Counted from the stretch's first letter, positions 582 through 19,817 are shown. The stretch: DNA of 20,000 nucleotides from an uncultured virus (IMG/VR IMGVR_UViG_3300037455_000857) (IMGVR_UViG_3300037455_000857); one strand, 5' to 3'. The notes: generated from the letters alone by a model not told the origin. Numbers and translations are program-made.

Positions 582-1298
582 TTATTGTAATTTTTTGTCA
601 TCAGTAACAACAATGCCGCCGACCCAACTTGGTTTGGTTTTTGGCGATTTCAATCGCGGGTTGTTTGAACAATAAAAGTTACCGCCGACTTTTTTCATTG
701 CACCATTAATTGATATTATCTGATTGTATTCACAATCCAAATCTCTGCCGATTTCTATAGGTGCGTGTTTGAGTGATTCTATTTTGTTTTTACGGCAGGA
801 AAAATTCTTTCCGACAAACCTTGGTGCGCCTTCAAGCGATGTTAAATTGTTGGCTTCGCAATAAAAACTGCCGTTCACTTTCTGCGGTGCGCCTTCAAGC
901 GATGTCAATTGGTCATCATCACAAAAAAAGTCACCACCAATTTCCTGCGGTGCGCCTTTAAGTGATTCCAATTTGTTGCCATCGCAGTAAAAATTTTCAC
1001 CAATTTTCTTTGGCATACCGTAAAGCGATTTGAGTTTGCAATAATTGCAAATGACCGAGCCTTTAACTATGCCGAATTTGATTTTCAATTTACCATTTTT
1101 ATCAACTACACGAAAATCAATGGTGATGTCACCATCGCAGTCATATAGTCTCGACAATTTGTTCCACACAAGTTCGTATTGGTTGATGAATGATTTTGCT
1201 TTATCATCAACCATTGGTTCATCAAACCTTTTGTCGTCACCGACAATCGGCTTGATATTCAATTTCTCGTTGAATTGCTGTGTGTTCAGTACCTTCAT
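582..1298 (-). CDS. Leader-family protein with 21-aa LRR-like solenoid repeats
   Basis: Start reassigned to the ATG at 1298 (MKVLNTQQFNEKLNIKP). About 6-7 tandem 21-aa units of GxFxCxxNxLxSLxGAPxxVG. Confidence 0.85.
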   Translation of the reverse strand: MKVLNTQQFNEKLNIKPIVGDDKRFDEPMVDDKAKSFINQYELVWNKLSRLYDCDGDITIDFRVVDKNGKLKIKFGIVKGSVICNYCKLKSLYGMPKKIGENFYCDGNKLESLKGAPQEIGGDFFCDDDQLTSLEGAPQKVNGSFYCEANNLTSLEGAPRFVGKNFSCRKNKIESLKHAPIEIGRDLDCEYNQIISINGAMKKVGGNFYCSNNPRLKSPKTKPSWVGGIVVTDDKKLQ

Positions 1299-1317: not shown

Positions 1318-1770
1318 TTATTTATCCCTTTGCCAAATAAGTTCCATATCATCTCTGTTTATCGGCGGGTCTATGAAATAAACTGAAGGATATGGTTGTT
1401 CCGATTTGCCTCTGTATATAGACATAACTTTTTTGATTGTGAACGACTTTGTGTCAACAAGGTTGATGTCGAAACGTGAAAGAGGCATCGTGATAAACCT
1501 GCTCTGTTTCTTGCTGTATGCCACGAATCCTCCATCCGAATATTCTTCACCGAACATACCTATCTTTGACGGATAATGTTCATTGCAATCCTCTTTTGAT
1601 ATGTAAACGTATGGGATGTTTTTTGTTGACGGGCTGAAATCGATGTCAATCACAACGAAGTCGCCGCTTTGCAGAAGTCGCTTCGGTGTCTTTGTGTTTT
1701 TCAGTCGTTCCTTGCTTATCGGCTGTATGTTGAGTCTTTCGTTAAATTGCTTTAAGTCAAGTATTTCCAT
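1318..1770 (-). CDS. Leader-family protein, one TGD-type domain
   Basis: Start at 1770 (MEILDLKQFNERLNIQP). Contains LQSGDFVV...YISKED...IYR...PPI...LIW. Confidence 0.85.
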   Translation of the reverse strand: MEILDLKQFNERLNIQPISKERLKNTKTPKRLLQSGDFVVIDIDFSPSTKNIPYVYISKEDCNEHYPSKIGMFGEEYSDGGFVAYSKKQSRFITMPLSRFDINLVDTKSFTIKKVMSIYRGKSEQPYPSVYFIDPPINRDDMELIWQRDK

Positions 1771-1771
1771 A

Positions 1772-2782
1772 TTAAAAGTCATATATTGATTTTTCCATTT
1801 GTGTAAAGTCCTGCTTGTATTTTTTCAATGCATCCAACTCTTCTTTTGTGTATGGTCGAATCCATATCTTTTCACCCTCATTTGACGGATTGTGGAAATA
1901 TTTTACGTCCAACGGCTGTTTTATGTTTTTGTTCCTTATGATAAGGTCAAGAACAATGCCTTTCAATGTTTTCCTTGTTTCCTCAAGTCTTTCATTGAAA
2001 TTGGCAAGCCTTTCGTATTTGAACTCCACAGACTGTAAACCATTGTACTTGCCAATAATATTTTTGGTTTTCGAATACACGAGTATGCCCGTGTCGCTTA
2101 TCCAATCTGGTTCATAAAGATTCAGTTCAAGTATTTTTTCATAATCATATTTGAAATAATCGTCCTTTGATATAAACACATAGAATTGGTGTGTCTTTGT
2201 CTTTATATTATGTGCGAACACAACGTCTCCCGTTTCCAATCGCTTTTTCGGCGGGACGGATTCTTTTGCGAGACGTTCCTTGCTCATAGGCTGTATTGAC
2301 AATTTTTCAGACACACTTTCGACAACTTTCAATGATTTGTTTTTCCATATCAGCCTGCCGTTGTCAATAGGCGGGTACAGTAAGTAATCCTCCGACAGAG
2401 GGAGTTTGATGCCGTTCACTCTGTATATCGCCGTTATGTAATGGTTGTCAAAAATACCGTTTGGTTCAAGATTGTCGTTGAATCCAGACAAGTGCATATA
2501 GGAATACGAGCCTTTCCATTTTACTTCGTAATGCAGCAATATTCCTTCCGCCGACTTTTCTTTTTGATAGTCGCCCTCAAGATACACATAATCCCTTATA
2601 TTGTCCTTTTCTATGTAAACATAGGGTACTTTGTTTCTTTCGGTCAACTTACTTCCGTATTTCATCACCATTACTATATCGCCCGTTTTCAGCATCTGTT
2701 TCGGTTTTAGCAATGTGTTTTTTAGCCTATCGTTTGATATTGGCTGTATGTTGAGTTTCTCGCTCAACTGTTCGGTATTCAT
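1772..2782 (-). CDS. Leader-family protein, two TGD-type modules
   Basis: The ATG at 2782 overlaps the upstream stop (TAATG); an alternative TTG at 2791 gives (M)EIMNTEQLSEKL. An internal second motif, SVSEKLSIQPMSKERL, is present. Confidence 0.85.
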   Translation of the reverse strand: MNTEQLSEKLNIQPISNDRLKNTLLKPKQMLKTGDIVMVMKYGSKLTERNKVPYVYIEKDNIRDYVYLEGDYQKEKSAEGILLHYEVKWKGSYSYMHLSGFNDNLEPNGIFDNHYITAIYRVNGIKLPLSEDYLLYPPIDNGRLIWKNKSLKVVESVSEKLSIQPMSKERLAKESVPPKKRLETGDVVFAHNIKTKTHQFYVFISKDDYFKYDYEKILELNLYEPDWISDTGILVYSKTKNIIGKYNGLQSVEFKYERLANFNERLEETRKTLKGIVLDLIIRNKNIKQPLDVKYFHNPSNEGEKIWIRPYTKEELDALKKYKQDFTQMEKSIYDF

Positions 2783-4614
2783 TATCTCCAAGCCTCGTCC
2801 CATATAAGATTTGTTTTTTTCGCAATGTAGTTTATGTTTTCAAAAAAATTTATGTCAATATGCGGTTCAGCCGCAATTCTGTAAACGCGCAGGACTTTTG
2901 TGTTCAAGTTCATTTGCAGACTGCTGTTGTATTCTGAAAGGAAATCCCTTGTGAAATAATTTGCCTTTTCCAAAAATACAAACGCACCTTCTTCTGATTC
3001 TTTGTAGTGTGACATAGGCAGGAAGAAATTGAACAGTTTGTCGTACTTCCCGCTTGCAACGTCCTCCGCCGATATGAATACGGTGGCGATGTGACCTTTT
3101 TGGTTTCCTATGATTGCTATGTCGCCCGTCTTGAAATTAGCCCTCATATCCCACGGTGTTTTGTACTTCACCATAGGAAATGTGTTTTTCAGACGTTCTT
3201 TGCTTATTGGTTTTATATTCAGTTTCTCGTTCATCTTCATAGGTCTTTTGGCGAAACCGTGTTCAGCAGTCCAATAGCATTCGGCGAATGACACGGGAGG
3301 TCTTTGTATGTATTCTATCGAAATCCTGCTGTTTTGGCTGAAGTCTTTTATCCGAAGCAATGCAGACACATACAAAGGGTTTGACGCTTTTGAAACAAGT
3401 TTGTCGTCAATGTCCTCGATGTATCGCCAAACATAGGTGTTGTCCCCAAACGGACGGACAAAGCACCCGTTGAGGTTGTATTCCTCCATTGATTTAAGCA
3501 TTGAGCCAAACGGGTATTCTAAATGCTTTTGCTTCTTTAGGTACTCACGTGTCACATACACTCTGTAATGATAGTGTCCGCTTTCGTTGCATTGCGCTAT
3601 GTCGCCGCATTTTATGTGTGTTCTTATATCGTTCACATCGGAAGCGGTTTTTGCGAGTCGTTTATTTGACATAGGCTGTATGTTCAGTTTTTCCAAAACG
3701 GATACATTCAGACCTTCTTCGGGTGTCCAATAAATCTTTCCGTAATCAATTGGCGGTGCTTTGATGTATTCATTCATCGCGAAATCATTTGGGTCAAACT
3801 CATTCAGCCTCCACAACGCCTCTATCTGTGCGCCTTTTCCGTTATTGGCGACAAGAGATTCGTTATATGTTTTTATGACGCATATAGCGAAAACATCCCC
3901 GCTGACCGAATACACGAACCCGCCGCTTGAATTTTCCGTTTTCAGTTTTTGGTAAATTAGGTCAAACGGATATTGATTGCTCTGTTTTTTGGCAAAGTCG
4001 TATGTTATAAACACGGCATATTTCGTATCGCCAAAGGTTTCGCATCGCGCTATGTCGCCGCATTTCAAGTGTGTTCTGATGTCGTTCATATCGGAAACGG
4101 TTTTTGTAAGACGTTCCTTTGACATAGGTTGTATGTTAAGTTTCTCGGACACATCGCCAATGCGCTTGTATATGATTTCCGATTTGTTTTTGAGCGACTT
4201 TATGTCCAAGAAAAATTCATCGTCAAACGGCTGCTCTATGTCAAAGCACCTCGCGATTTCAACTATCTTGTCGCCCCACTTGTTTTCCATTTTGTCGTTC
4301 ATATACCTGCTCAAGCAAGTGTAGGTGTAGCGGTCGTCCGTCCTATGGACAAGCACACCCTCATTCGCGTCTTTGTTGAACCCAACGGATGTTATTTTCA
4401 GCAGGTCGTTGTAATAGTATTTGTTCAAGTCCTCATAAGACAGAAATATGTATTCGTTCAGCATTCCGAGCATTATGGATTCTCTGTGATGTTCCATAAC
4501 TATCACGTCACCGCTTTTCAAACGGTCTTTCCACCCAAGCCTTTCGATTATGCGGGCGTGTCGTATTTTCATACGGTTTGGTGCTATGGGCTGTATGTTA
4601 AGTTTCTCGTTCAT
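2782..4614 (-). CDS. Leader-family protein, four tandem TGD-type modules (610 aa)
   Basis: Four motif copies (MNEKLNIQP, VSEKLNIQP, VLEKLNIQP, MNEKLNIKP), each followed by a (T/S/C)GD(I/V) domain. Confidence 0.9.
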   Translation of the reverse strand: MNEKLNIQPIAPNRMKIRHARIIERLGWKDRLKSGDVIVMEHHRESIMLGMLNEYIFLSYEDLNKYYYNDLLKITSVGFNKDANEGVLVHRTDDRYTYTCLSRYMNDKMENKWGDKIVEIARCFDIEQPFDDEFFLDIKSLKNKSEIIYKRIGDVSEKLNIQPMSKERLTKTVSDMNDIRTHLKCGDIARCETFGDTKYAVFITYDFAKKQSNQYPFDLIYQKLKTENSSGGFVYSVSGDVFAICVIKTYNESLVANNGKGAQIEALWRLNEFDPNDFAMNEYIKAPPIDYGKIYWTPEEGLNVSVLEKLNIQPMSNKRLAKTASDVNDIRTHIKCGDIAQCNESGHYHYRVYVTREYLKKQKHLEYPFGSMLKSMEEYNLNGCFVRPFGDNTYVWRYIEDIDDKLVSKASNPLYVSALLRIKDFSQNSRISIEYIQRPPVSFAECYWTAEHGFAKRPMKMNEKLNIKPISKERLKNTFPMVKYKTPWDMRANFKTGDIAIIGNQKGHIATVFISAEDVASGKYDKLFNFFLPMSHYKESEEGAFVFLEKANYFTRDFLSEYNSSLQMNLNTKVLRVYRIAAEPHIDINFFENINYIAKKTNLIWDEAWR

Positions 4615-4625
4615 TGTATTGTTGT

Positions 4626-5768
4626 TTATTTGTCTTTGCAGAATCTCAATGACAGTCTGTATTTGTGTTTGTCGGACTTGTTTATGGAATCAGTCCAAGC
4701 ATTGCCTCTTGGGTTGTTCATAGTACCCATAACCTTTAACATATAGGCTAAAGGTTTTCTTATTGTGCCGAATTGTGAAATATCGTTATAGTAATGTTCA
4801 ACCCAAAACTCTGTGTATTTGTCGTTACCAAGTCTGTGTGTGTCGTAAAGCACGCCAATAAGTTTGGCGCAGAATCCCAATTCGTCACTTCCGCCGTATT
4901 CTTTGGATACGAGCGAAAGATAGTTTCTATCAGAAACGCAGTCGAGAAGGTCATCGCAGTCTTTGACTGTCGGTATTCTCCATCCTTTTGGAATAACGAG
5001 TTTTGCCGCGTTCATTGAATAGAAAATCTCCCCGTTTGCTTCAATGTAGTCGTTTCCTTCAACAAGAGGCTCTCCGTCATTTGTGAACAGTATTTTGGCA
5101 TTTTCGGCACTCCAAAGTTTGTTGCCGATTTGAACACTTTTTATGTGTGTTGTGTTTTTGAGACGCTCGCTTGATATGGGCTGTATGTTGAGTTTCTCGT
5201 TTACGTTCTTATAGAACATATTGTAGATTTCCCGCAAGGCGTTTGTGTTTATGTCCGTGTCATAGAACGGCTGTTTCGGGACAATGCCTGGTCTGTATAT
5301 CACGGATATTGCTTCAAACGAATACGGCTTCGGGGGTATTGCAATTGGTCTTTCGTCACCAAAATAGTCTATGCACAAGAAATGGTGTTTGTGCGAGTCG
5401 TTTCCGCAGTATCTGTTTTTCTCCAAGTATTCGTGTATGTCCGAGCCGTATCCTATGAGAATGCCGTTTTTGATGTATTCCTTTCTGTTAGGATATAACT
5501 TGAAAAAGTCGTACAGTTTGTCGTATTCGTATTTCATATAGTCTTTGTATGAAACATATCTGTACTTTTTTTCTATAAACGGTATGTTCGTGTTCTCGTG
5601 CATTCTCGTGACGACAACGACATCGCCGCTTTCAAGACGGCGTTTCCAACCATACCTTTCAAACGGGTCGGTACGCAGCGCGTCAGAAGCGTTTTTCAGC
5701 GCGTCTTTCGACAAAGGCTTTATATTCAGTTTCTCGTCTATATATTCTGTTGTTCCGAGTATTTTCAT
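4626..5768 (-). CDS. Leader-family protein: TGD-type module plus FISUMP-like module
   Basis: MKILGTTEYIDEKLNIKP, internal NVNEKLNIQP, then QIGNKLWSAEN...PKGWRIPT...GF...FW...LSLRFCKD. Confidence 0.88.
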   Translation of the reverse strand: MKILGTTEYIDEKLNIKPLSKDALKNASDALRTDPFERYGWKRRLESGDVVVVTRMHENTNIPFIEKKYRYVSYKDYMKYEYDKLYDFFKLYPNRKEYIKNGILIGYGSDIHEYLEKNRYCGNDSHKHHFLCIDYFGDERPIAIPPKPYSFEAISVIYRPGIVPKQPFYDTDINTNALREIYNMFYKNVNEKLNIQPISSERLKNTTHIKSVQIGNKLWSAENAKILFTNDGEPLVEGNDYIEANGEIFYSMNAAKLVIPKGWRIPTVKDCDDLLDCVSDRNYLSLVSKEYGGSDELGFCAKLIGVLYDTHRLGNDKYTEFWVEHYYNDISQFGTIRKPLAYMLKVMGTMNNPRGNAWTDSINKSDKHKYRLSLRFCKDK

Positions 5769-5778
5769 AAATTTCAGT

Positions 5779-6849
5779 TTATCTTTCCCAAATTTTCACA
5801 GCCTTGTATATGGGCTGTTCTTTGAAATATTCCACGTCAAGCGGGAGTTTCAGATTGACGAATCGCCACACCACCCATATACAATAGTCTTTTCCGTTTT
5901 GCGTGAGGTTTGAATCCAACTGCGCGAGGTCTGTCCGTGTGAACGTTTCCTTGCCCGCATCATATGGGGCGTGCTTGTAAAAGATGATGAACACGCCATC
6001 CTTGTAGAATCGCGTATCGCGGAGTGCGATTGCAAATCCGAAATATTTGTCATAGGTTTCGTTCTCAATGTCTTCCTTTGATATGTACACGCCTATGTGC
6101 TTGGTATTGGGTTTTCCAATCAAGGCAATGTCGCCCGTCTTGAAGTTGGCACGCATATCCATCGCGCTATTATAATGTACTATATGGTTGCGCAGCCGTT
6201 CTCTTGATATAGGCTGTATGTTGAGTTTTTCTTTAAGCGGTTTTATGTTTTTGAGATTCCATTTCGAAGAATCCCCGCTCAAACTTGTAACGGTTTGGAA
6301 CATAGTGTCTATGTTCTGGATATTGTCCGTTTTTATCTGTGTGTCGTTGCGCTTTCTTTTCCATATAAGTTCATACCCATTGTCTTCAAACGATGCCGTC
6401 ATACATACTTTTTTAACCAAATCCGTTGGATTTATCGACTTCAGATTTTTGTGTCTGAAAATGGCTATAACCGTTCTGTGTGTTATGGTCGGGCTTTGGC
6501 TTGTTTCTTGCAAGTTGTTGTCGAATTCATCCAACAGAGTGTATGTCAGACGGTTTACGTCTCCGCAATAGTTTATGATACAACCGCTGTGGTTGGTATC
6601 GTTGTTCACTATATCTTGGTTGAGTCCGCATTTGGAATAGTCATTGTATGCCACAAACATTCCCATTGAAAGAGTGATGCCGCCGAATGCCTGCTCGTCT
6701 TTTATAGTAAGCAAGTCCCCCGTTTGCAGGTTGGAACGCATATAGTGTGGAGTCATTCTATCCCCCACACGCTCGTTGCGCAGTCTTTCGTCCGAAATGG
6801 GCTTTATATTCAGTTTCTCGTTAAGTTGTCTTGTGTTCAGTACTTTCAT
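5779..6849 (-). CDS. Leader-family protein, two TGD-type modules
   Basis: MKVLNTRQLNEKLNIKP and internal PLKEKLNIQP; ATGA overlap with the upstream gene. Confidence 0.88.
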   Translation of the reverse strand: MKVLNTRQLNEKLNIKPISDERLRNERVGDRMTPHYMRSNLQTGDLLTIKDEQAFGGITLSMGMFVAYNDYSKCGLNQDIVNNDTNHSGCIINYCGDVNRLTYTLLDEFDNNLQETSQSPTITHRTVIAIFRHKNLKSINPTDLVKKVCMTASFEDNGYELIWKRKRNDTQIKTDNIQNIDTMFQTVTSLSGDSSKWNLKNIKPLKEKLNIQPISRERLRNHIVHYNSAMDMRANFKTGDIALIGKPNTKHIGVYISKEDIENETYDKYFGFAIALRDTRFYKDGVFIIFYKHAPYDAGKETFTRTDLAQLDSNLTQNGKDYCIWVVWRFVNLKLPLDVEYFKEQPIYKAVKIWER

Positions 6850-8255
6850 AGCCTTGTGTTTTTTACTATTATTCCGTCAACCCTGCATTTGTCAAATATG
6901 CTGAAGTCGGAGATTCTCACGCAACCGTTAAGATTGATGTTTCCGCCAACGTATTCGGGTACTGCGCTGACATCGACCAAATTGTAGCAGAACGACAGCA
7001 CGAAGTCGCCGCTTATATTCAATGGGACATCGTTTATCCTTTCAAGATTCGTGCAATATGCGAAATCGAAATTGCCCTTTACTGTTTTTGGAGAGCCGTC
7101 AAATGAAACCAAATCCGTGCATTTGTTGAACAATGCGTCACCTCCTATTTCCTGCGGTGCGCCGATTAGGTTTTTCAGTTTGACGTTTCTGTTGCACCAA
7201 AAACCCCCGCCGACTTTCTGCGGTGCGCCTTCAAGGGTTTGCAGGTTTTCGCAGTTCGAGCAGTCCAAATTACCGATTACCTGCTTCGGTGCGCCTTTCA
7301 TTGTGAGCAGTCCCTTGCAGGACGAACAGTTGAAGTCAGAGCCTATTTCCTGCGGTGCGCCTTCGAGCGTTTCGATGTTGTTGCACATAGCGCAACTGAA
7401 CCACCCGCCGACTTTCTGCGGTGAGCCTTTCAGTGATGTCAGTCCTTGGCATCCAGCGCATTGGAAATTGCCTTTCACTTCTGTCGGCGCGTTTTCAAGC
7501 GAAACCAAGTCGGAGCAACCGCCGCTGTTGAAATTACCGCCCAACTTCCCAACGGGAACGGGTATTTTGCCGTCAACCAAGTCCTTGTCGTTCAGAATCA
7601 GATTTTCGATGCCGTCAAATCTCTGCGTGCTTACGTTGTATGTGAGGTGGTGATTCTCAACAAACGCTTTCTGCTCCAAACTCAAACGCGGAACAAGTCT
7701 GTCTTTGGGAAACGGGTGTATGTCGAGTTTCTCGTTCAAATTTGCGCCTCTCGCCCAAAGGAGTGAGAATATGTTTACTTTGTCGTTGAATTTGTTTCCG
7801 ATATACTCAAAGTCAATCGGTGTTTTCACAATGGACGGAACTCGATATACAGCATATATTCGATGTATGTTGTCTTTGTTTTTTATCTCGAAGTTTCGGT
7901 CAAACGATTTAAGATACTCGTAGTTGTTGTATTTGTCCCCGAATACGGAAACAAACACGCCTTCACCAACGTAGTCTTTGTTTAGAAAACACATACCAGT
8001 TTCGTTCATATAGTATTTTTCGTCTTTCATCCAATCCTCGTATGATATGTAAACTTGAAGTTTCGCGTTATACTCATCGTATTTGCTCCCGATTAAATGT
8101 CCTTCGGATATGATTGCGATGTCGCCCGTTTTGAAATTGGCACGCATTACTTCCTTTGTCTTATAAAGAGAGTAAAATCCGCCTTTAAACCTATTCATCG
8201 GAATTGGCTGTATGTTGAGTTTCTCGTTGAATTGCTTTGTGTTCAGTATTTTCAT
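6846..8255 (-). CDS. Leader-family protein: TGD-type module plus 22-aa LRR-like solenoid
   Basis: Start reassigned to the ATG at 8255 (MKILNTKQFNEKL). Internal NLNEKLDIHP is followed by about 9-10 units of GxFxCxxCxxLxSLxGAPxxVG. Confidence 0.88.
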   Translation of the reverse strand: MKILNTKQFNEKLNIQPIPMNRFKGGFYSLYKTKEVMRANFKTGDIAIISEGHLIGSKYDEYNAKLQVYISYEDWMKDEKYYMNETGMCFLNKDYVGEGVFVSVFGDKYNNYEYLKSFDRNFEIKNKDNIHRIYAVYRVPSIVKTPIDFEYIGNKFNDKVNIFSLLWARGANLNEKLDIHPFPKDRLVPRLSLEQKAFVENHHLTYNVSTQRFDGIENLILNDKDLVDGKIPVPVGKLGGNFNSGGCSDLVSLENAPTEVKGNFQCAGCQGLTSLKGSPQKVGGWFSCAMCNNIETLEGAPQEIGSDFNCSSCKGLLTMKGAPKQVIGNLDCSNCENLQTLEGAPQKVGGGFWCNRNVKLKNLIGAPQEIGGDALFNKCTDLVSFDGSPKTVKGNFDFAYCTNLERINDVPLNISGDFVLSFCYNLVDVSAVPEYVGGNINLNGCVRISDFSIFDKCRVDGIIVKNTRL

Positions 8256-8262
8256 ACATTGT

Positions 8263-8757
8263 TTATCTTTCCCAAATGATTTTTGCGTTTTTTGTGTTCG
8301 GATATTTGTAGTATTCTTCGTCAAACTTGCCGTGATTTATAAAAGGATTCCTATAAACGCAAATGATTTTGCTTTTTCCAATATGATAATCACTAATAAG
8401 TTCATCATTGTAACTGCTGCAATATTCATATACGAAACCGCTTGCATATGTTTTACTGCTAACGAACACACCGTCTCTGATATTATCGGAATAGTAATTC
8501 AAATTATTTAATCCAAGCAGTTTTCCGAATTGTTTGTCAATCAAATCTTCAAATGAAACATATACAGATTTTATGTCCGAACCGCTTGACACACCATTAT
8601 AATTCACCATTTCTGATATGACAATATCGCCAGTTTCGAAATTGTTGCGCATATCCTTTGGCGTGGCGTATTTTGCCGAAATGCGTTGCAATACATTCTT
8701 GTCGATAGGATGTATGTCGAGTTTCTCGTTGAATTGCCTTGTGTTCAGTATTTTCAT
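8263..8757 (-). CDS. Leader-family protein, one TGD-type domain
   Basis: MKILNTRQFNEKLDIHP...MRNNFETGDIV...IIWER; ATGA-coupled to the upstream gene. Confidence 0.88.
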   Translation of the reverse strand: MKILNTRQFNEKLDIHPIDKNVLQRISAKYATPKDMRNNFETGDIVISEMVNYNGVSSGSDIKSVYVSFEDLIDKQFGKLLGLNNLNYYSDNIRDGVFVSSKTYASGFVYEYCSSYNDELISDYHIGKSKIICVYRNPFINHGKFDEEYYKYPNTKNAKIIWER

Positions 8758-9221
8758 AAACGTTGTCTTTCTTTGTCATATATGAGTTTGCATCGTTCTT
8801 TCGGTGGATTCTTGAAATACATAGGTTTTAACGGTTGTGATATTTCTGACGGTCGATATACCTTTTCAACACAAACCGTTTTTAATCGAACCAAATCCTT
8901 GTCAAAATAATCGACAATTCCAAATCCAAGCGTTCCGAGGTATTTTGTGATAAAAACACCGTCTTCCAATTTCCCGTATTTCATCATATCATTAATGCTC
9001 ATATTAAGAAGTTCGTTATACTTGTATTCAGTCAAATCGTTTTTCGATACGAAAACACCGTCAACACCGCCGTTGGTTGAAAGGGTCACAATGTCACCAG
9101 TTTTGAAATCGGCACGCATATCTTCGGCTGATTTCGGTATGAATATGTTGTCGAGTCGTTCTTTTGACATCGGCTGTATGTCGAGTTTCTCGTTGAATTG
9201 ACTTGTGTTCAGTATCTTCAT
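8754..9221 (-). CDS. Leader-family protein, one TGD-type domain
   Basis: MKILNTSQFNEKLDIQPMSKERL...MRADFKTGDIV...YFKNPP. Confidence 0.88.
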   Translation of the reverse strand: MKILNTSQFNEKLDIQPMSKERLDNIFIPKSAEDMRADFKTGDIVTLSTNGGVDGVFVSKNDLTEYKYNELLNMSINDMMKYGKLEDGVFITKYLGTLGFGIVDYFDKDLVRLKTVCVEKVYRPSEISQPLKPMYFKNPPKERCKLIYDKERQRL

Positions 9222-9227
9222 ACGGCG

Positions 9228-9887
9228 TTAAATTTTGTCCCAAACGAAAATGAAAAGTTGCAGGAAGCACACGACTTCCATAAAGAATATCCACGCCTTG
9301 TTGTCAACGTCAACGGAATAGTCGGGGTTGTATGCGCCAGGGGTGTTGATGCCTATCAGTATGAACATCACATAGGACAGAATCATACTCGGTATCGCGA
9401 CAAAACTTGTAAGGCAGAGATAAGTCGTGATGAGTGCTATTGTAACAAGGGAGCAGATATAGTGTATGGGTCTTGCCCAACCGTATTTGAAAAACACGCT
9501 TGGCTTGAATTTCTCCAAGAGTTCCTTTATGAATTCCTTGAATGACTTTTTGACGATGGGCTGCTTGGTGTCGAAGCGAACTTCGGGTACATAGGTGTCT
9601 CCGCCGTCACGTTTTGGTCCAGATTTGTAGCGGCAACTAACGCCTATCATAACCATACACACGACAACCACAATCGGAATCCAACAAAGGTTTTTCGGGG
9701 ATATTGTGAACCACCAAAAACCGAATGGAACTGCGGTTAGCGAACACCACGCGCTGAACATCCAATCCCATTTGTTAGGGAGAAGGTAGTATGTTTCGGA
9801 AATTGATACGGGAACTCCGTATTTGAACAATATAAAGATTATGTATGCAAAGCACAACACAATCGAAATAATGGGTAAACTAATCAT
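9228..9887 (-). CDS. Multi-pass membrane protein, hypothetical
   Basis: About 5-6 hydrophobic segments around a charged central loop; no leader motif; tightly packed with its neighbours (6-7 bp gaps). Confidence 0.8.
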   Translation of the reverse strand: MISLPIISIVLCFAYIIFILFKYGVPVSISETYYLLPNKWDWMFSAWCSLTAVPFGFWWFTISPKNLCWIPIVVVVCMVMIGVSCRYKSGPKRDGGDTYVPEVRFDTKQPIVKKSFKEFIKELLEKFKPSVFFKYGWARPIHYICSLVTIALITTYLCLTSFVAIPSMILSYVMFILIGINTPGAYNPDYSVDVDNKAWIFFMEVVCFLQLFIFVWDKI

Positions 9888-9894
9888 AATACTC

Positions 9895-11178
9895 TTATTT
9901 TTCTCTTTTTATGTCAACTATCATCCTCAAATTGGGTGATATATTATCTTGGTTGATTATGTCGAACAATCCAAAGATGTTCTGCCACACGGGAAGCATC
10001 ATATCGTTTTTTCCAAAGTCCAATGGCAGGAAATCACGAATCAGCGATTGCTGCTCATACGTATAGTCAGCCATACCTTCTTGTATAAGCGTGTTGAGCA
10101 TCCCAAGTTCCTTTTCGGTGAGCGTGAGTTTCATATATGTTTTAGTCATATCGGTTCGCCACCAAGACGATTTCATCTTTTCAAGTTTCTTCAAAAGCGA
10201 GTGCTTTATCATATCATCGGTGTTCCCGACTGAATGCAGCCGTGACGCACTCATAGGCTGTATGTCGAGTTTCTCGTTAAGGAACGGTTTTCTTCTTTTC
10301 CAAACGCACACCGCTTTTCTGATTGGGGGGTTCTTGAAATATTCCTTTGGCAGCGGGAGCGTTAAATCGGGTATTCTGTAAACGGCATCAACGTAATTGT
10401 AATAATCGTCTATCAAATACTCTTTAAGGGATTTGTCATAGTTAAACGCTTGGTTTGTCAGAACACCTTTGTCGTTCACGCCTATAAGCAGGTCAAATGC
10501 CAAATGGAGTTTGTCGGTGGTGAATATGATGTCGGTGTAGTCTTCATAGTCGTTGTCGCTTGCTTTCGGCATATATACGTATATGTTGTTTCTGACAAAC
10601 CCGTGGTTCGCCTTTTCAACGATTATGTCGCCTAACTGAAAATTCTCCGACATCTCCTCCGCCGTTCTGTATTTCTTGACGCTTCCATATTTGCCGAGTC
10701 TTTCCTTTGACACGGGCTGTATATTCAGTTTCTCGTCCACTTTGTTTTTGTCTGTCAGTTCTATGATAAGAACCGTTTCCAACGGATTGTGCTTGATTTT
10801 TATACCTTCTTCCCAAACGCCAAGATGATAGAATATGGCGTACATTGTGACCGAGTTGAGTTGGTTGTACCCTTCTATGAATGGTATGCAATCGTGTAGT
10901 TTTTGGTATGTCAACGTGTTTGGAAGAGAGTCTTTCATTATCCCGTACATTATATCGTTGAACGCATCGAGTTCCTTGCTTGTGAGTTTGAGCCGTATGC
11001 ACTCTCTGTATTTACCGTTTTGGCTTTCATAGTATTCTATCGGCTCTATCTTTGACAGACCCAATTTGCGTTTCAGCGATTTTTCGGCAGAACCGAGTTT
11101 TTTGAGCGCGTCCGCTGTAATCGGCTTTATGTCGAGTTTCTCGCAAGTCAGAAATTCGTTGGTTTGTAAAACTTTCAT
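9895..11178 (-). CDS. Leader-family protein with three modules (unknown domain D / TGD-type / domain D); first gene of the leftward operon
   Basis: Start reassigned to the ATG at 11178 (MKVLQTNEFLTCEKLDIKP), 22 bp downstream of a TATAAATA box. Internal VDEKLNIQP and LNEKLDIQP. Confidence 0.85.
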   Translation of the reverse strand: MKVLQTNEFLTCEKLDIKPITADALKKLGSAEKSLKRKLGLSKIEPIEYYESQNGKYRECIRLKLTSKELDAFNDIMYGIMKDSLPNTLTYQKLHDCIPFIEGYNQLNSVTMYAIFYHLGVWEEGIKIKHNPLETVLIIELTDKNKVDEKLNIQPVSKERLGKYGSVKKYRTAEEMSENFQLGDIIVEKANHGFVRNNIYVYMPKASDNDYEDYTDIIFTTDKLHLAFDLLIGVNDKGVLTNQAFNYDKSLKEYLIDDYYNYVDAVYRIPDLTLPLPKEYFKNPPIRKAVCVWKRRKPFLNEKLDIQPMSASRLHSVGNTDDMIKHSLLKKLEKMKSSWWRTDMTKTYMKLTLTEKELGMLNTLIQEGMADYTYEQQSLIRDFLPLDFGKNDMMLPVWQNIFGLFDIINQDNISPNLRMIVDIKREK

Positions 11179-11496: not shown

Positions 11497-13293
11497 ATGT
11501 ATTACAATTCTATTAATGAATCTCAAGTTCTCAATACTTGGGGACAGCACATTAAGGAGAGTTTGGGCATTAACGATGAAAGCAAATTGGCTTGGATGTC
11601 AAAGTATGCTTATATGCACGACTTGCACGACAAGAAAATGTTGAACGAATCAGTTGACGGTCACGCCCATCTGAATCCTAATATGACAATCGGCGGAATG
11701 GGTGCTATCACCTTCCCAGGCGCAGGCACTAACAACACCTACGACCGTTCACTCGCAGGCAGCGGTGACAATGTTTACAGCGTGCTTCCTCTTGCTTTGC
11801 AAGTAGCCGCTCAAACCATCGCTCTCGACCTCGTTCCCGTTGTTCCTATGCAGGGCCCTCACGGACTTTTGCAATACCTCGACTATGTTTACGAAGGTGG
11901 CAGACTCCACAACCAAGGTGGCAGCATCTACACAAGCGTTAACAACGAAAACTATGCATCACCTTATATGATTAAGGCTATGCTGTTTGACGTAACCGAG
12001 GGAGAAGGCAGCGATGCTGAAAAGCACACTTTCCGTCCAAACGCCAAGTACGTTTTGACCGAGAACGGTGAAACCATCGAAGACTACGATTTGACCTACA
12101 TTTATCCTAACCGTATTGACGGCAAGCCTCTGTTCCGCGTGATTGAGAAATCACACTACAACGGTCAGAAGATGGTCGGCGGCGAAAATGCAGCAACTCC
12201 AATCTACAAAATCTTCGCTGATATGAAGACCACAGAGAACCCACAAGGTATCTATGGTATCAAGTGCATCGGCAGCGGTTCAGACGACATCGAACTCACA
12301 GTCGGAAGAAGCGAGACTCCTCAAGAAGTTCGCGCATTCGAAGACCACGTGACCTCATTCAGCGGCGAAGGATTCTTGAAGGACACTGTTACTTCAAACA
12401 ACCCTTACACCCGTGAAATGGGCGAAGCAACCCCAGGTCGTAAAATCGGTCTGAAGTCTTACACTTTGGATGTCAAGGCTACGACTTTCCAAGTTGATTC
12501 AGCCATCACCCGCGAGCAAGTTCAAGACTTGAAGCAATTCGGTATTGACGCTGTTGCTCAAGCAGAGGCTGCATTGGTGAACGAACTCACTCAATGTATC
12601 AACAAGGTCATCCTTGAAAAGATGTTCAACCTCGGTGCTTTGAACGCTAAACAACTCGAAGAAGTTGAAGGATTCAACCAAATCTCCGCTTGGTTCACCA
12701 ACGGAACTCCTACTGCAACCACCAAAGAAATTTGGTTGGGCGACAAGTATGACAAAGAAGGCGAATTGGTAGGCAAAATCACAACCAATGTTCCTTACAC
12801 CAACGTAACGGGCGGCGGCGAAGTGATGGGTACTGTCCAAAGACGTGTGATGACCAAAATCATCGCTGCTTCTAACATCATCGCAGTTCGTGGTCGTAGA
12901 GGTGCAGGTACATTCGCCGTGGTAAGCGGTACAATCGGAACTGCTCTCCAAGACTGCGCAGGATTCGTTCCTTATCCATTGAGCAACACCATCTCCGCTA
13001 ACGGAAACAGCCTCTACCCAATCGGTGCATTGGCAGGTATCAGCATCTATGTTGACCCCAATATGGCATTCAACGACACCCGCGTTTGCGTTGGTCGTAA
13101 GGGTAAAGAAAACGAGCCAGGCATCGTGTTTATGCCTTACTTGATGGCTGACAAGGTGGAAACCACTTCAGAGTTCACAATGGCACCAGTCATTTCTCTG
13201 AAATCCCGTTTCGCAGTTGTTGAAGCAGGTATCTACCCGCAAACTCAATACTACACCTTCGGTATCAAACTCGATGGCGTGAGCCTCGTGTAA
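11497..13293 (+). CDS. Major capsid protein, T4 gp23-like (HK97 fold)
   Basis: gp23-like motifs: AQTIALDLVPVVPMQGPHG (cf. gp23 IAFDICGVQPM..PTG), QDLK..GIDA, GALAGISIYVDP, GRKG...GIVFMPY, PVISLKSRFAV. It has a late box upstream and a strong terminator downstream. Confidence 0.92.
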   Translation: MYYNSINESQVLNTWGQHIKESLGINDESKLAWMSKYAYMHDLHDKKMLNESVDGHAHLNPNMTIGGMGAITFPGAGTNNTYDRSLAGSGDNVYSVLPLALQVAAQTIALDLVPVVPMQGPHGLLQYLDYVYEGGRLHNQGGSIYTSVNNENYASPYMIKAMLFDVTEGEGSDAEKHTFRPNAKYVLTENGETIEDYDLTYIYPNRIDGKPLFRVIEKSHYNGQKMVGGENAATPIYKIFADMKTTENPQGIYGIKCIGSGSDDIELTVGRSETPQEVRAFEDHVTSFSGEGFLKDTVTSNNPYTREMGEATPGRKIGLKSYTLDVKATTFQVDSAITREQVQDLKQFGIDAVAQAEAALVNELTQCINKVILEKMFNLGALNAKQLEEVEGFNQISAWFTNGTPTATTKEIWLGDKYDKEGELVGKITTNVPYTNVTGGGEVMGTVQRRVMTKIIAASNIIAVRGRRGAGTFAVVSGTIGTALQDCAGFVPYPLSNTISANGNSLYPIGALAGISIYVDPNMAFNDTRVCVGRKGKENEPGIVFMPYLMADKVETTSEFTMAPVISLKSRFAVVEAGIYPQTQYYTFGIKLDGVSLV

Positions 13294-15679: not shown

Positions 15680-15710
15680 AAAACGCCTGCGCTTGCAGGC
15701 GTTTTTGTTT
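15680..15710. terminator. Bidirectional intrinsic terminator between convergent genes
   Basis: AAAACGCCTGC-GCTT-GCAGGCGTTTT hairpin with A/T tracts on both sides. Confidence 0.85.
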
Positions 15711-16567
15711 TAAAACAGTTTCTTTTCTTCAACGTATCTGTTTTCGTTCTTGACTTCCTCCCGCAAGATTTTCGGGTAAGCCGTGTTCGGGTTTATTCGG
15801 TGGTGCAAGCGCATATACTTCGTGAAGAACTGCTTTATGCAGGTGCAGGACGGCGCGACCATAACGGTATAGAAACTCTTGACGTATGTACCGACACCCA
15901 TATACGCTTCGGTGATTCCTCCCTTATTCTGCTGCGTGTCGGTTTGGTCTAACTGAATGTTCATAATAGTCAAGAATATTTCGCCGCGCATACCGCCTAC
16001 CGTGTATGTGTTAGCATCCTCGTTCAGTGTACCTATGAATTTGAACGGTTTGTCAACAGAGCATATAAACGAGTTCATCGCCTTTCTCTTGTATTGCAGA
16101 CCCTTGTAACCGCCAACGTGGTCTCCGCCTTGGCAGAACGCCACTGTTGTTATTGGTGTGTTTTCGTAAAATTCAAGCAGGCTTTCAAACAGAAGGTCTA
16201 TGTTCTTTATGGCGACCGCGCCTTCAAGTGTCCTTATTGTGAATACGTAATAGTCATCGTCATATTCGGCGAAATATTTGTATCCAAGTTTTTTGGCAAT
16301 GTCAAAGCAGGCATTCCTTGCATAGACGATAACGCCCCACTTTTCAAAATTATCCATAACGTCAAACGTCTTGGCGACCTCTTTCTTGCTGAAAAGTATG
16401 ATTTTGTCCTTTCCGAAATTTTTGCAGTATTGGTCGTATGTGTCGTCCTCGTCATCAAGGACAATATACCAATCGCCAGTATACCCGCTGTGTTTTAGCG
16501 AATGAAGGGTCTTTACATCATTCGGTCTTTTGTGTGATAATATGAATATGCAGAAATCACTTCTCAT
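15710..16567 (-). CDS. GT-A fold glycosyltransferase-like protein (TET-associated/GREB1-like family), putative DNA base modification
   Basis: IFILSHKRP, YIVLDDED, YARN, EYDDDY (DxD-type), KRKAMNSF, NED motifs, recognised by eye as this phage family. Confidence 0.7.
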   Translation of the reverse strand: MRSDFCIFILSHKRPNDVKTLHSLKHSGYTGDWYIVLDDEDDTYDQYCKNFGKDKIILFSKKEVAKTFDVMDNFEKWGVIVYARNACFDIAKKLGYKYFAEYDDDYYVFTIRTLEGAVAIKNIDLLFESLLEFYENTPITTVAFCQGGDHVGGYKGLQYKRKAMNSFICSVDKPFKFIGTLNEDANTYTVGGMRGEIFLTIMNIQLDQTDTQQNKGGITEAYMGVGTYVKSFYTVMVAPSCTCIKQFFTKYMRLHHRINPNTAYPKILREEVKNENRYVEEKKLF

Positions 16568-16991
16568 CCCTTTTCTTTTTTAAGTCCTTTGCTTCGTCAG
16601 CAATGATGTTCTGAAGTTTGACGAATCCGTATTCGATTGCCTTGTTATAGTCTATGATAACGAGTGCGGATTTCTCCATTAGGTCTTTCATTTCCTTTGA
16701 TGCGTGGGCGTAGTAGTCGGCTATCTTCGCGTAGTTGTAAACGGTGTGTCGTTGGGCGGCATTAAGCAGGAACGCCTTTTCTTCCTCGCCGAGATTGCTT
16801 TTCTTTATCTCTTTCACGAGGGCGTTTGTCTTTGATTTGTCGATAAGTTCCGAAATCTTCGGCTTTTCGTTTTTCGGTTCGTAAATGGGTACGTCAACCT
16901 TTGCCGTGTATTTCTCGTTTTCAAGGGAATCTTGTATGAGTTCCTCCTTGCTTTTTTCTTCTTCACCGAACAGCGAGTGTGTTTTTGCCAT
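16557..16991 (-). CDS. Conserved phage hypothetical protein, partner of the glycosyltransferase
   Basis: YTAKVDVPIYEP...FLLNAAQRHTVYNYAKIADYYAHAS...SALVIID; overlaps the glycosyltransferase start by 11 bp. Confidence 0.8.
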   Translation of the reverse strand: MAKTHSLFGEEEKSKEELIQDSLENEKYTAKVDVPIYEPKNEKPKISELIDKSKTNALVKEIKKSNLGEEEKAFLLNAAQRHTVYNYAKIADYYAHASKEMKDLMEKSALVIIDYNKAIEYGFVKLQNIIADEAKDLKKKRDEK

Positions 16992-18419: not shown

Positions 18420-18629
18420 TTAAACTAATTCTAATTTCTTGTAATTGCTTTCGAGGCTCTCCATAAGATAGTCGGAGACGTTCTTGCCGTTTTGCAATAT
18501 GCCCTCGTAGATGTCCTTCGGGACGTTGAGGTATTTGCAGACATTGCCGTTATTGTATTTTATCGTGAGTTCCTTTGTGACTTCCGAATACACAATGCTC
18601 TTTATGGTGTTCGCTGTTTCGACTAACAT
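18420..18629 (-). CDS. KTSC-domain protein
   Basis: IKSIVYSEVTKELTIKYNNGNVCKYLNVPKDIYEGIL matches the KTSC pattern; 69 aa. Confidence 0.8.
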   Translation of the reverse strand: MLVETANTIKSIVYSEVTKELTIKYNNGNVCKYLNVPKDIYEGILQNGKNVSDYLMESLESNYKKLELV

Positions 18630-19765: not shown

Positions 19766-19817
19766 CAATTTAAGTTTTAAGTGGGTTAGTAATAAATTTT
19801 ATTGTCCTATTTTTATT

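Follow-up and report, generated by a model that had tools for sequence, protein, structure and literature searches.

A two-part tag before every module of tagged proteins in a huge phage suggests head-cargo polyproteins cut by a T4-type prohead protease

The T4 leader is a peptide of about 10 aa, MKTYQEFIAE, and the T4 internal proteins are described as highly basic (PMC8442874). According to the account in PMC9026906, residues 4 and 7 of the leader serve targeting and residues 8 and 10 (P3 and P1) serve processing, gp21 cleaves after L/I-x-E, and the internal proteins are poorly conserved among T4 relatives. In the giant phages phiKZ, 201phi2-1 and SPN3US, a gp21-related protease is reported to process many head proteins behind a Glu, in some cases at several sites of one protein, and paralogues with conserved N-termini are described (PMC5694885, PMC9026906). 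For SPN3US, all identified cuts except the self-cleavage of the protease are said in PMC10052503 to make N-terminal propeptides. Iyer et al. 2017 (PMC5512222) predict that polyvalent proteins are packaged and injected and that processing then yields single functional units.

We analysed a stretch of 20,000 nucleotides from an uncultured virus (hereafter the window), which comes from a huge phage whose capsid protein is of the T4 type. The window carries 23 copies of the motif hydrophobic-x-E↓KL(N/D/S)IxP...RL, where the arrow stands for a candidate cut site, as elsewhere in this text; 14 copies are N-terminal and nine lie inside ORFs. A six-frame search of the whole window with the regular expression KL.I.P gave 22 matches, every one within long ORFs, and the 23rd copy is a variant (ERLNIQP, in the ORF at 1318-1782) missed by the strict expression. 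At the DNA level, the pattern GARAARYTNRRYATHNNNCCN had 21 matches; 200 shuffles gave an expectation of 0.01, and none of them reached 21. When the 14 tagged ORFs were cut at the motifs, every module trimmed by 14 residues at its start and the remainders clustered by BLASTP at 1e-3, the 23 resulting modules fell into clusters of 16, 2, 2, 1, 1 and 1; modules 1 and 3 of the ORF at 9895-11178 are distantly related to each other (28-30% identity), which gives a 16+2+2+2+1 grouping. The tag and its position before every module, one copy for each, are direct observations. The first-pass annotation had counted 23 copies for 23 domains in this same grouping, and the nine internal copies it listed (VSE, VSE, VLE, MNE, VNE, LKE, LNE, VDE and LNE, each followed by KL(N/D/S)I(Q/K/H)P) are exactly those that we found. 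The domains preceded by the tag include an unnamed 16-member domain, a Fib_succ_major domain and an LRR-like domain. Two to four copies occur in 6/14 tagged ORFs of the window (Table 1), and at least two in 27 among the 150 database representatives listed.

Table 1. Tagged ORFs, internal tag copies and the capsid gene in the window
Feature	Position	Strand	Remarks
Tagged ORF, 171 aa	44..559	-	one module; leader MKILNTRQFNE, tag K codon 526, then Fib_succ_major-like domain
Tagged ORF, 238 aa from MKVLNTQQFNE	582..1298	-	one module; K codon 1265; LRR-like GAPxxxGGxFxC repeats
Tagged ORF, 150 aa from MEILDLKQFNE	1318..1770	-	one module, 16-member family; variant tag ERLNIQP
Two-module ORF, 336 aa from MNTEQLSE	1772..2782	-	N-terminal tag 2758, internal tag 2305; 343 aa instead if the start is 2803
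Internal copy VSE↓KLSIQPMSKERL	2270..2314	-	P3 to P12'; K codon first base 2305
Four-module ORF, 610 aa	2782..4614	-	start MNE↓KLNIQP, without long leader
Internal copy MNE↓KLNIKPISKERL	3190..3234	-	module 3/4 border, 610-aa ORF; K codon 3225
Internal copy VLE↓KLNIQPMSNKRL	3655..3699	-	module 2/3 border, 610-aa ORF; K codon 3690
Internal copy VSE↓KLNIQPMSKERL	4108..4152	-	module 1/2 border, 610-aa ORF; K codon 4143
Two-module ORF, 380 aa	4626..5768	-	16-family domain + Fib_succ_major; first AlphaFold2 model
Internal copy VNE↓KLNIQPISSERL	5160..5204	-	380-aa protein residues 189-203; K codon 5195
Two-module ORF, 356 aa	5779..6849	-	N-terminal tag 6816, internal tag 6228
Internal copy LKE↓KLNIQPISRERL	6193..6237	-	K codon 6228
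Two-module ORF, 469 aa from MKILNTKQFNE	6846..8255	-	16-family domain + LRR-like repeat domain; second AlphaFold2 model
Internal copy LNE↓KLDIHPFPKDRL	7695..7739	-	469-aa protein residues 173-187; K codon 7730
Tagged ORF, 164 aa	8263..8757	-	one 16-family module; tag K codon 8724
Tagged ORF, 155 aa	8754..9221	-	one 16-family module; tag K codon 9188
Three-module ORF, 427 aa from MKVLQTNEFLTCE	9895..11178	-	16-family module between modules 1 and 3
Internal copy LNE↓KLDIQPMSASRL	10237..10281	-	module 2/3 border, ORF 9895..11178; K codon 10272
Internal copy VDE↓KLNIQPVSKERL	10696..10740	-	module 1/2 border, ORF 9895..11178; K codon 10731
Major capsid protein, 598 aa	11497..13293	+	Pfam Gp23; match begins at residue 97
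Tagged ORF, 155 aa	13387..13854	+	one 16-family module; tag K codon 13423
Tagged ORF, 171 aa	13861..14376	+	one 16-family module; tag KLNITP, K codon 13894
Tagged ORF, 144 aa	14622..15056	+	one acidic module (pI 4.5), other family; tag K codon 14661

The motif may be a two-part address tag for proteins entering the phage head. Its first part would be a 9-residue N-terminal leader, M-(K/E)-I-L-x-x-x-x-(Y/F/Q), which spans P12 to P4 and would act like the T4 capsid-targeting sequence. The second part would be hydrophobic-x-Glu↓Lys-Leu-x-Ile-x-Pro-(V/I/M)-(S/T)-Lys-x-Arg-Leu, with a proposed cut at the arrow by a T4-type prohead protease (gp21 family). Single-module proteins would have the leader alone removed; a protein of two to four modules would be taken into the prohead uncut and then be cleaved at each internal copy, so that each domain would become a separate internal protein with a KL(N/D)IxP N-terminus. 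The tagged proteins would thereby be carried in the head and probably reach the host by ejection, and the retained 12-residue part may have a role of its own, e.g., at ejection or in docking to either core or shell. Judged on the sequences, the chance that the multi-module tagged proteins are head-cargo polyproteins cut by a protease appears to be slightly better than even. This is also how they had been read in the first-pass annotation; its sequence-level predictions, as far as they could be checked, all held, while the cutting and the packaging themselves are what we infer.

We compared 120 N-terminal and 32 internal copies of the tag from the window and two relatives, G001 and G002. Each leader position (P12-P4) has an information content of 1.3-2.9 bits in the N-terminal copies and of less than 1 bit in the internal ones. 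The regular expression itself fixed K, L, I and P at P1', P2', P4' and P6' and left P1 free, and P1 is Glu in 119/120 N-terminal and 32/32 internal copies. P3 is aliphatic in 31/32 internal copies (V16, I7, L6, M2 and T1); the N-terminal copies have mainly I76, F17, V11 and L9, of which F and V go beyond the quoted T4 rule. P7'-P12' are conserved as strongly in internal as in N-terminal copies. This selective conservation, in which the internal copies have lost the leader and kept P3, the P1 Glu and the 12 residues past the cut site, is observed directly and bears out the earlier remark that these copies lack the leader and keep hydrophobic-x-Glu.

The capsid protein of the window matches Pfam Gp23 at 1.5e-30 and carries candidate propeptide sites, I-N-E↓S at residues 6-8 and L-N-E↓S at residues 49-51; the N-terminal Glu sites noted in the first pass are thus present, and E8, E51 and S52 are invariant in 6/6 relatives. 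The gp21-family protease is known from the closest relatives, not from the window's own genome: Peptidase_S77 (PF03420, the T4 gp21 family) scores 49.5 bits in G001 and is also over the cut-off in G003 and G005. This protease matches the T4 gp21 structure 5jbl_A at an E-value of 2.2e-6. A V-N-E↓A site lies after the protease domain in 3/3 relatives and in LR756500.1, and the protease ORF runs on into tandem 14-residue repeats, H(S/N)DYLAE(Q/K)L..., a scaffold-like tail whose Y-L-A-E↓K/Q-L junction is that of the tag. Among all six-frame ORFs of at least 80 aa in G001, [YF][LIVM]xE[KQ]L occurs 48 times: in 34 tags, nine scaffold repeats and five places elsewhere.

Alternatively, the motif might be an uncleaved docking or assembly peptide; the head cargo would then stay intact, with at most the N-terminal leader removed, and the internal copies would be extra binding sites with or without linkers. 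We consider this unlikely. The 12 residues behind the Glu equal it in conservation and are far more than a protease needs, and the candidate protease sites elsewhere (LNE↓S and VNE↓A) lack them, so that much of the conservation of the motif is unexplained by cutting. The Glu is statistically inseparable from the rest of the motif and could be simply a motif residue. Nevertheless, the internal copies keep an aliphatic P3 and a P1 Glu despite less than 1 bit at P4-P12, and P3 and P1 are exactly the processing positions of T4 as given in PMC9026906. About 7/181 copies retain KLxIxP...RL without the Glu, and the 610-aa protein, in a correction to the first pass, has no full leader and starts as M-N-E-KLNIQP with only MNE ahead of the tag; both the Glu-less copies and this leaderless protein count against cut cargo. 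An intact state also has a precedent in the 42 SPN3US head proteins reported as uncleaved (PMC10052503), whereas the recurrence of the same junction in the protease-scaffold tail speaks for cutting. Furthermore, modules 1 and 3 of the ORF at 9895-11178 each align over the full length of one G001 gene (59% and 45% identity), and these two genes are neighbours; that modules fused here are separate genes in a relative fits products meant to be separate. If the polyproteins are indeed cut, it is plausible, as the first-pass annotation proposed, that the exposed KLNIQPxSKERL end serves as a second signal, because it is conserved like the cut site and persists in the copies without the Glu.

The segments between sites are modules of 125-294 aa, several with recognisable folds. 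Most have a pI of 8-9, no more than mildly basic, and some are acidic, which counts against cut cargo. In the AlphaFold2 model of the 380-aa protein, pLDDT is below 50 at residues 181-198, which include 10/15 residues of the internal tag, and in that of the 469-aa protein it is below 50 at residues 140-190, covering the whole internal tag (173-187); the two N-terminal tags have pLDDT block means of 52-65. Both modelled internal tags sit between well-predicted domains, ahead of two unrelated folds, and thus appear to lie in low-confidence linkers, albeit low pLDDT is not in itself proof of an exposed linker. Fib_succ_major in the ORF at 4626-5768 scores above the cut-off (PF09603, 35.1 bits), and the corresponding part of the model has C-type-lectin-like matches (VIA-align Z 5.4-6.7, weak), among which are DGR variable proteins and invasin-type adhesins. 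Tagged proteins of G001 match Fib_succ_major, DUF285 or LRR in Pfam, most being without any match.

C-type-lectin-like and LRR/DUF285 binding domains are commoner on virion surfaces than inside heads, and the binding-type nature of the recognisable payloads counts against cut cargo. If the tag instead fixed interchangeable binding modules on the virion exterior (decoration, whiskers or fibres) or elsewhere in the infected cell, it would be natural that the recognisable payloads are ligand-binding folds (Fib_succ_major/C-type-lectin-like, LRR/DUF285), and that the payload families are very diverse and fast-evolving, like receptor-binding proteins. Such an anchor is nonetheless improbable, since the leader is laid out like a T4 capsid-targeting sequence with a gp21-type motif at its end, and the junction is that of the head protease's scaffold repeats. 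An external anchor would have no reason to keep a Glu-ended site before each module, and 64-72 different proteins would be in competition for one external site.

The tag is found on about 64 and 72 genes in two relatives, and tagged genes make up ~10% of the coding DNA of G001. It is portable: clustering by BLAST placed the 182 tagged modules from the window, G001 and G002 in at least 34 groups. Tagged genes lie on both sides of the T4-type capsid gene and, judging from sequence comparison, evolve fast. The G001 capsid protein is 96% identical to that of the window, and DNA matches between G001 and the window are limited to the capsid gene region and two stretches near the 3' end of the window. 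The 610-aa protein has a collinear four-module orthologue with a full leader in G001, the two being 28% identical outside tags and 65% inside, and three two-module orthologue pairs are 28-37% identical outside tags and 59-64% inside. Internal tags are kept between orthologues of only 32% identity. As the tags are far more identical than the rest of the orthologues, the internal copies reflect purifying selection rather than fusion debris. Spacing within the array is -16 to +12 nt in 12/16 listed gaps. One internal copy in G002 (13332) has a whole leader and looks like a fresh fusion. In the window tags, K is AAA in 21/22 copies and I is ATA in 22/22, and there is otherwise free variation among synonymous codons, with five in use for Leu, four for Pro and five for Arg.

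That the internal copies are neutral remnants of recent fusions, with the DNA repeat mainly a module-shuffling recombination site, would suit the short gaps, across which loss of a stop codon fuses neighbours, the whole leader of the G002 copy and the near-fixed K and I codons, but is highly improbable, because the four-module layout and its three internal tags persist at 28% identity outside tags, the freely varying Leu, Pro, Arg and Glu codons place selection on the peptide, and the decay of the internal copies ends exactly at P3.

The proposed cut-cargo polyproteins can be compared with several known systems. In the giant phages, as far as the accounts cited above describe them, the motif is S/A/G-x-E or A-x-E and the released pieces are mostly discarded propeptides of >100 aa, whereas here P3 is V/I/L and whole folded domains lie between sites. 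Identity with phiKZ/SPN3US-type processed head proteins was rejected on the aliphatic P3 of 31/32 internal copies and the 125-294-aa modules. Polyvalent proteins are likewise multi-domain and encoded beside virion genes, but are characterised by Iyer et al. as carrying enzymatic conflict domains released by an embedded peptidase (MPTase) (PMC5512222); the modules here are binding-type or of no known type, and their joints are a prohead-protease-type tag. Pfam (E<=0.01) gave no convincing match to a peptidase in any of the six multi-module ORFs, only a sub-threshold one to NLPC_P60 (19.7 bits, cut-off 23), and identity with polyvalent proteins was rejected on this ground.

Herpesvirus assemblin-scaffold and phage P2 gpO are protease-scaffold fusions, and the protease of this clade likewise continues into a scaffold-like tail with many candidate sites for its own cleavage; to our knowledge, a tail repeat resembling the cargo leader junction has not been described for either. 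Encapsulin cargo proteins carry a short loading peptide with which they bind an HK97-fold shell protein on its inner face, and the retained KLxIxP...RL part may be comparable to such a peptide. We found no comparable repeated-tag cargo scheme described in the literature.

The T4 capsid-targeted proteins processed by gp21 (IPI, IPII, IPIII and Alt) resemble the proteins here in that a short leader ending in hydrophobic-x-Glu is common to unrelated proteins (MKTYQEFIAE in T4, M(K/E)ILxxxQ(Y/F)(I/F)xE here). The T4-type capsid protein and the variable cargo genes add to the likeness, as would a gp21-family protease like that of the relatives. On the other hand, T4 has a handful of tagged proteins, and 64-72 are found per genome here; unlike the highly basic T4 internal proteins, the modules are mildly basic. 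The tag extends 12 conserved residues past the proposed cut, which would remain on the product, and is repeated inside ORFs before each domain, whereas the T4 proteins are described, in the accounts cited, as cut once. The scheme would thus be a variation on T4 capsid targeting, in which the tag stands also at every joint of multi-domain proteins.

A six-frame search of the window for KL.I.P returned 22 copies of the tag, hydrophobic-x-E↓KL(N/D/S)IxP...RL (the arrow marks the proposed gp21-type cut, with P3 and P1 before it and P1'-P12' after it), every one of them in a long ORF, and a variant, ERLNIQP in the ORF at 1318-1782, brings the total to 23. The degenerate DNA pattern for E-K-L-x-I-x-P matched 21 times against 0.01 matches expected from shuffling. 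An N-terminal leader, usually MKILNTxQFNE, precedes 14 of the 23 copies. Nine copies are internal, following VSE, MNE, VLE, VSE, VNE, LKE, LNE, LNE and VDE; the first-pass annotation had likewise counted nine with hydrophobic-x-Glu, which the search bears out. Split at the motif, the 14 tagged ORFs yielded 23 modules (one domain behind one tag copy), which with the tag removed formed BLAST clusters of 16, 2, 2, 1, 1 and 1; the two singletons of the ORF at 9895-11178 are distant relatives of one another, and once they are paired the earlier module count of 16+2+2+2+1 also holds. The presence of tag copies, one per module, is confirmed.

We noticed one detail absent from the first-pass annotation: the ORF of the 610-aa protein (2782-4614, - strand) starts with M-N-E-KLNIQP, with no long leader. 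A full leader, MKILNTKELNE, is present in its orthologue in the relative G001 (L012:12043-13953, - strand). The 610-aa protein either can do without the leader or is handled in another way. The ORF is not a continuation of the upstream 380-aa ORF, as a TAA separates the two and their frames differ. Internal translation starts were also rejected as a general mechanism, because, of the nine internal copies, just one has a Met nearby (MKMNE at 3225).

The window derives from the genome of an uncultured huge phage. The best matches of its T4-type capsid protein in the phage collection were a 462-kb uncultured phage (LR756500.1, 44% identity) and Lak Prevotella megaphages (32%), and five relatives were found in IMG/VR by the same protein: G001 (96% identical; 413 kb, rated complete), G002 (88%; partial contig of 192 kb with a CheckV completeness of 70%) and G003, G004 and G005 (78-79%). 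At the DNA level the window aligned with G001 only at the capsid gene region and in two stretches near the window's 3' end, and no alignment was found between the tagged gene arrays; megablast of the entire window against the phage collection gave no match. The stretch carrying the ParB-like, baseplate-hub-like, KTSC and S1 genes has 86% DNA identity to G001. A TET-associated glycosyltransferase is encoded at 15710-16567 (- strand; Pfam TAGT, 1.2e-28), a hint that the DNA of this phage contains glycosylated, hypermodified bases. Within the tagged array lies an untagged 219-aa hydrophobic protein (9228-9887, - strand), judged by eye from its sequence to be probably membrane-spanning; a close homologue sits near the capsid gene in locus L005 (908, + strand).

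Features of the window and of its relatives referred to in the text
Feature	Sequence	Position	Strand	Remark
Major capsid protein, T4-type	window	11497-13293	+	Pfam Gp23, 1.5e-30
ParB-like protein	window	16557-16991	-	PHROG 620
Baseplate-hub-like protein	window	17328-18401	-	weak match
KTSC-domain protein	window	18420-18629	-	
S1-domain protein	window	18623-19768	-	
Protease-scaffold ORF	L007	1-1926	-	
Protease-scaffold ORF	L008	1426-3345	+	
Protease-scaffold ORF	L006	1408-3384	+	
Protease-scaffold ORF	L041	18043-19941	+	
Glu-less tag copies	G001	43315, 229643, 334895, 361473		contig coordinates
Glu-less tag copies	G002	67257, 92515, 98651		contig coordinates
Drifted tag copy	L003 (G003)	1704	-	example
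Drifted tag copy	L003 (G003)	2627	-	example
Drifted tag copy	L003 (G003)	13283	+	example

The tag DNA pattern occurred 56 times in G001, 53 times in G002 and not at all in G003-G005, and reversed-pattern controls gave 0. G003 spells the tag differently, as ...FVSE↓RLKINPVTNAE..., and the general spelling in the more distant relatives (capsid protein 78% identical), whose scaffold repeat matches that of G001, is ...FVSE↓R(L/M)KIxPVTNAE... A wider count over the window, G001 and G002, by a protein regex with four downstream checks, gave 181 copies: 120 N-terminal, 32 internal and 29 others, mostly with odd leaders, at least one of which (G001 157858) looks spurious. G001 carries 64 tagged ORFs with 75 modules (about 10.6% of its DNA), and the G002 fragment 72 with 84 modules (about 29%). 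Out of 1.84 billion representative proteins, the tag profile picked out only 213 at E<=0.001; among the 150 matches listed, most start at residue 1 and 27 have two to four copies by regex, many of these representatives being close relatives of proteins already counted and thus not independent. A word-indexed homologue search returned 2 proteins. No tagged array was present within 20 kb either side of the LR756500.1 capsid gene, near which the protease-scaffold gene and its repeats, in a more degenerate tandem form, were found.

N-terminal and internal copies differ ahead of the proposed cut. Positions P12-P4 carry 1.3-2.9 bits each (M, K/E, I, L, ..., Y/F) in N-terminal copies (n=120) and less than 1 bit each in internal ones (n=32), whereas P7'-P12' are equally conserved in both. 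P3 is I in 76, F in 17, V in 11 and L in 9 of the former, and V in 16, I in 7, L in 6, M in 2 and T in 1 of the latter; P1 is Glu in 119/120 and 32/32, respectively, the search regex having set K, L, I and P and left Glu and P3 free. According to the portion of PMC9026906 used here, gp21 cuts after L/I-x-E, and in the T4 leader (sequence from the relevant part of PMC8442874) residues 4 and 7 serve targeting and residues 8 and 10 (P3 and P1) processing; the split of tag conservation mirrors this mutational map. Leu, Pro and Arg of the tag are each written with four to six codons, which shows selection acting on the peptide.

The P1 Glu is absent in about 7 of the 181 copies, most of them 4-10 residues from the N-terminus, and the 12 residues after it are retained (e.g., MEGT↓KLKIKP and MESVS↓KLKISP). 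Among 46 leader matches in G001, 42 have the tag behind them, and the other four comprise one degenerated tag and three leaders ending in Glu without a tag. Two of these three are QFIAE leaders (192643 and 178758, both - strand), one QFIAE-leader protein having a tag about 105 residues further on, so leader and tag are separable. Similar sites had been claimed for the capsid protein N-terminus, and INE↓S and LNE↓S were indeed found within its first 51 residues, conserved in 6/6 relatives; neither these candidate sites nor the one behind the protease domain is followed by the 12 conserved residues. A protease site does not account for these residues. As they (i) exceed such a site and (ii) outlast the loss of Glu, and (iii) the leader occurs alone, the tag appears to be two-part, and we read its sequence as a removable leader with a putative cut site followed by a retained, putative address.

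Several findings suggest that the internal copies are functional. The four modules of the 610-aa protein are collinear with those of the 637-aa G001 orthologue, the identities being 65% in the tags and 28% outside; the corresponding values for three orthologues of the 380-aa protein (4626-5768) are 59-64% and 28-37%. Modules 1 and 3 of the three-module ORF in the window correspond to two whole, adjacent, separately tagged G001 genes (59% and 45% identity from end to end), which argues that the tagged module is the unit of evolution and that fused and split states interconvert. Array genes mostly lie close together, with 12 of the 16 gaps listed falling between -16 and +12 nt. At G002 13332 (- strand), an internal tag inside a 461-aa frame has a complete leader, MRILNTLDYIKE, ahead of it; two adjacent genes have probably fused here recently. 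The close spacing and this full leader suggest fusion by stop-codon loss, followed by decay of the leader to P3.

Pfam Peptidase_S77 scored over its cut-off in G001, G003 and G005, and the G001 protease domain matched the solved T4 gp21 structure 5jbl (E 2.2e-6). The ORF exceeds 640 aa. In this clade the prohead protease is fused to a scaffold-like tail, and a conserved RVNE↓AYGF site lies between the protease domain and the tail's tandem 14-residue repeats, H(S/N)DYLAE(Q/K)L(Q/E)KN(F/C)(A/D). The repeat junction, Y-L-A-E↓K/Q-L, equals the cargo leader junction, Y/F-I-x-E↓K-L: in G001 ORFs of at least 80 aa, [YF][LIVM]xE[KQ]L occurs 48 times, of which 34 are tags, 9 scaffold repeats and 5 elsewhere. 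Because T4 gp22 is likewise a scaffold full of its protease's sites (described in part of PMC5694885), this shared junction is the strongest indirect argument that hydrophobic-x-E of the tag is a real cut site. No covariation of the G003 leader variant with its scaffold repeat was visible, the repeat, DYLAE(Q/K)L, being the same as in G001. Complex prediction of a G001-type protease domain with a 31-aa tag scored 0.00 without controls, which is evidence neither way.

The tagged modules fall into at least 34 BLAST clusters, and Pfam named only Fib_succ_major, DUF285 and LRR among 60 G001 proteins. AlphaFold2 modelling of the 380-aa protein from a 28-row alignment gave a mean pLDDT of 68.8; the internal tag occupies residues 189-203, and pLDDT is <50 at 181-198, between two better-predicted domains. 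For the 469-aa protein (6846-8255, - strand; 51 rows, mean 76.5, LRR-like domain >90) the internal tag lies at 173-187, within a <50 stretch at 140-190. N-terminal tags of both models gave block means of 52-65. The models are compatible with the proposal that the tag is a linker, both modelled internal tags lying in low-pLDDT stretches, that of the 380-aa protein for the most part, and this placement disfavours an integral strand of the downstream fold. Since the tags fall in such stretches, the best-conserved alignment columns are predicted to be non-globular, which fits a linear motif recognised by another protein. The Fib_succ_major module showed weak likeness to C-type-lectin-like folds (Z 5.4-6.7), and a wide VIA-align search with the 16-member domain gave only weak matches (Z up to 5.2; ribosomal protein, NEAT and SH3-like chains). 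Foldseek with the 380-aa model against the PDB found nothing at E<=0.001, the ESM Atlas gave no usable match, and PHROGs gave nothing informative on tagged ORFs. Surface display of the tagged modules would suit their binding-type payloads, and we give it low odds.

The multi-module proteins had been proposed to be polyproteins that the prohead protease cuts into single-domain products. Conserved internal tags, a protease in the relatives, the shared junction and module borders that coincide with gene borders all speak for this claim, which leaves the 12 residues after Glu unexplained. Judged from these sequence comparisons, cutting by the prohead protease is the best-supported explanation, and one we lean towards. 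If cutting is confirmed, one could predict solely from the sequences of uncultured huge phages which proteins are packaged and probably injected, the lectin-like, LRR-like and unnamed modules, which evolve fast, would become candidate host-takeover or anti-defence factors, and there would be a natural design for loading several proteins per capsid from one construct. Reuse of the tag within genes means that a single chain would deliver several domains.

The T4 capsid-targeting sequence is the textbook route for loading proteins into a phage head. A 2023 review, in the part used here, calls the targeting mechanism still mysterious (PMC9958956). If cutting is confirmed, the match between tag and scaffold repeat would provide a concrete, testable model of targeting. 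It is attractive to speculate, albeit as a doubtful possibility, that the tag represents how capsid targeting works in T4-like heads, through a scaffold-repeat leader and a retained second address. On this view the scaffold's 14-residue repeat (Y-hydrophobic-x-E-K/Q-L) would recur as one copy in leader plus junction; the cargo would be built into the protease-scaffold core as it assembles and be set free by the very cuts that take this core apart. The retained KLxIxPV(S/T)KxRL end would escape cutting and act as a second address, by which each released domain might stay attached to the shell or the DNA, or might leave through the tail in a set order. If this is the case, one peptide code would make the whole injected proteome of these phages readable from sequence, amounting to about 10% of the 413-kb genome and about 29% of the 192-kb contig DNA.

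The strings KLNIQP, KLNIKP, MKILNT and EKLNIQ retrieved only an unrelated plant paper, and the parts consulted of the literature on capsid targeting, prohead proteases, giant phages and internal head proteins describe no tag-delimited head polyproteins; we found nothing in print on them. Phages phiKZ and SPN3US differ in using S/A-x-E sites and long discarded propeptides (from portions of PMC5694885, PMC10052503 and PMC9026906), and the release of polyvalent proteins is ascribed to embedded peptidases in part of PMC5512222. The scheme described here is T4 targeting extended: its logic appears at a far larger scale, with dozens of tagged genes per genome, and it further includes a conserved part that would be retained and the repeated use of the tag within ORFs.
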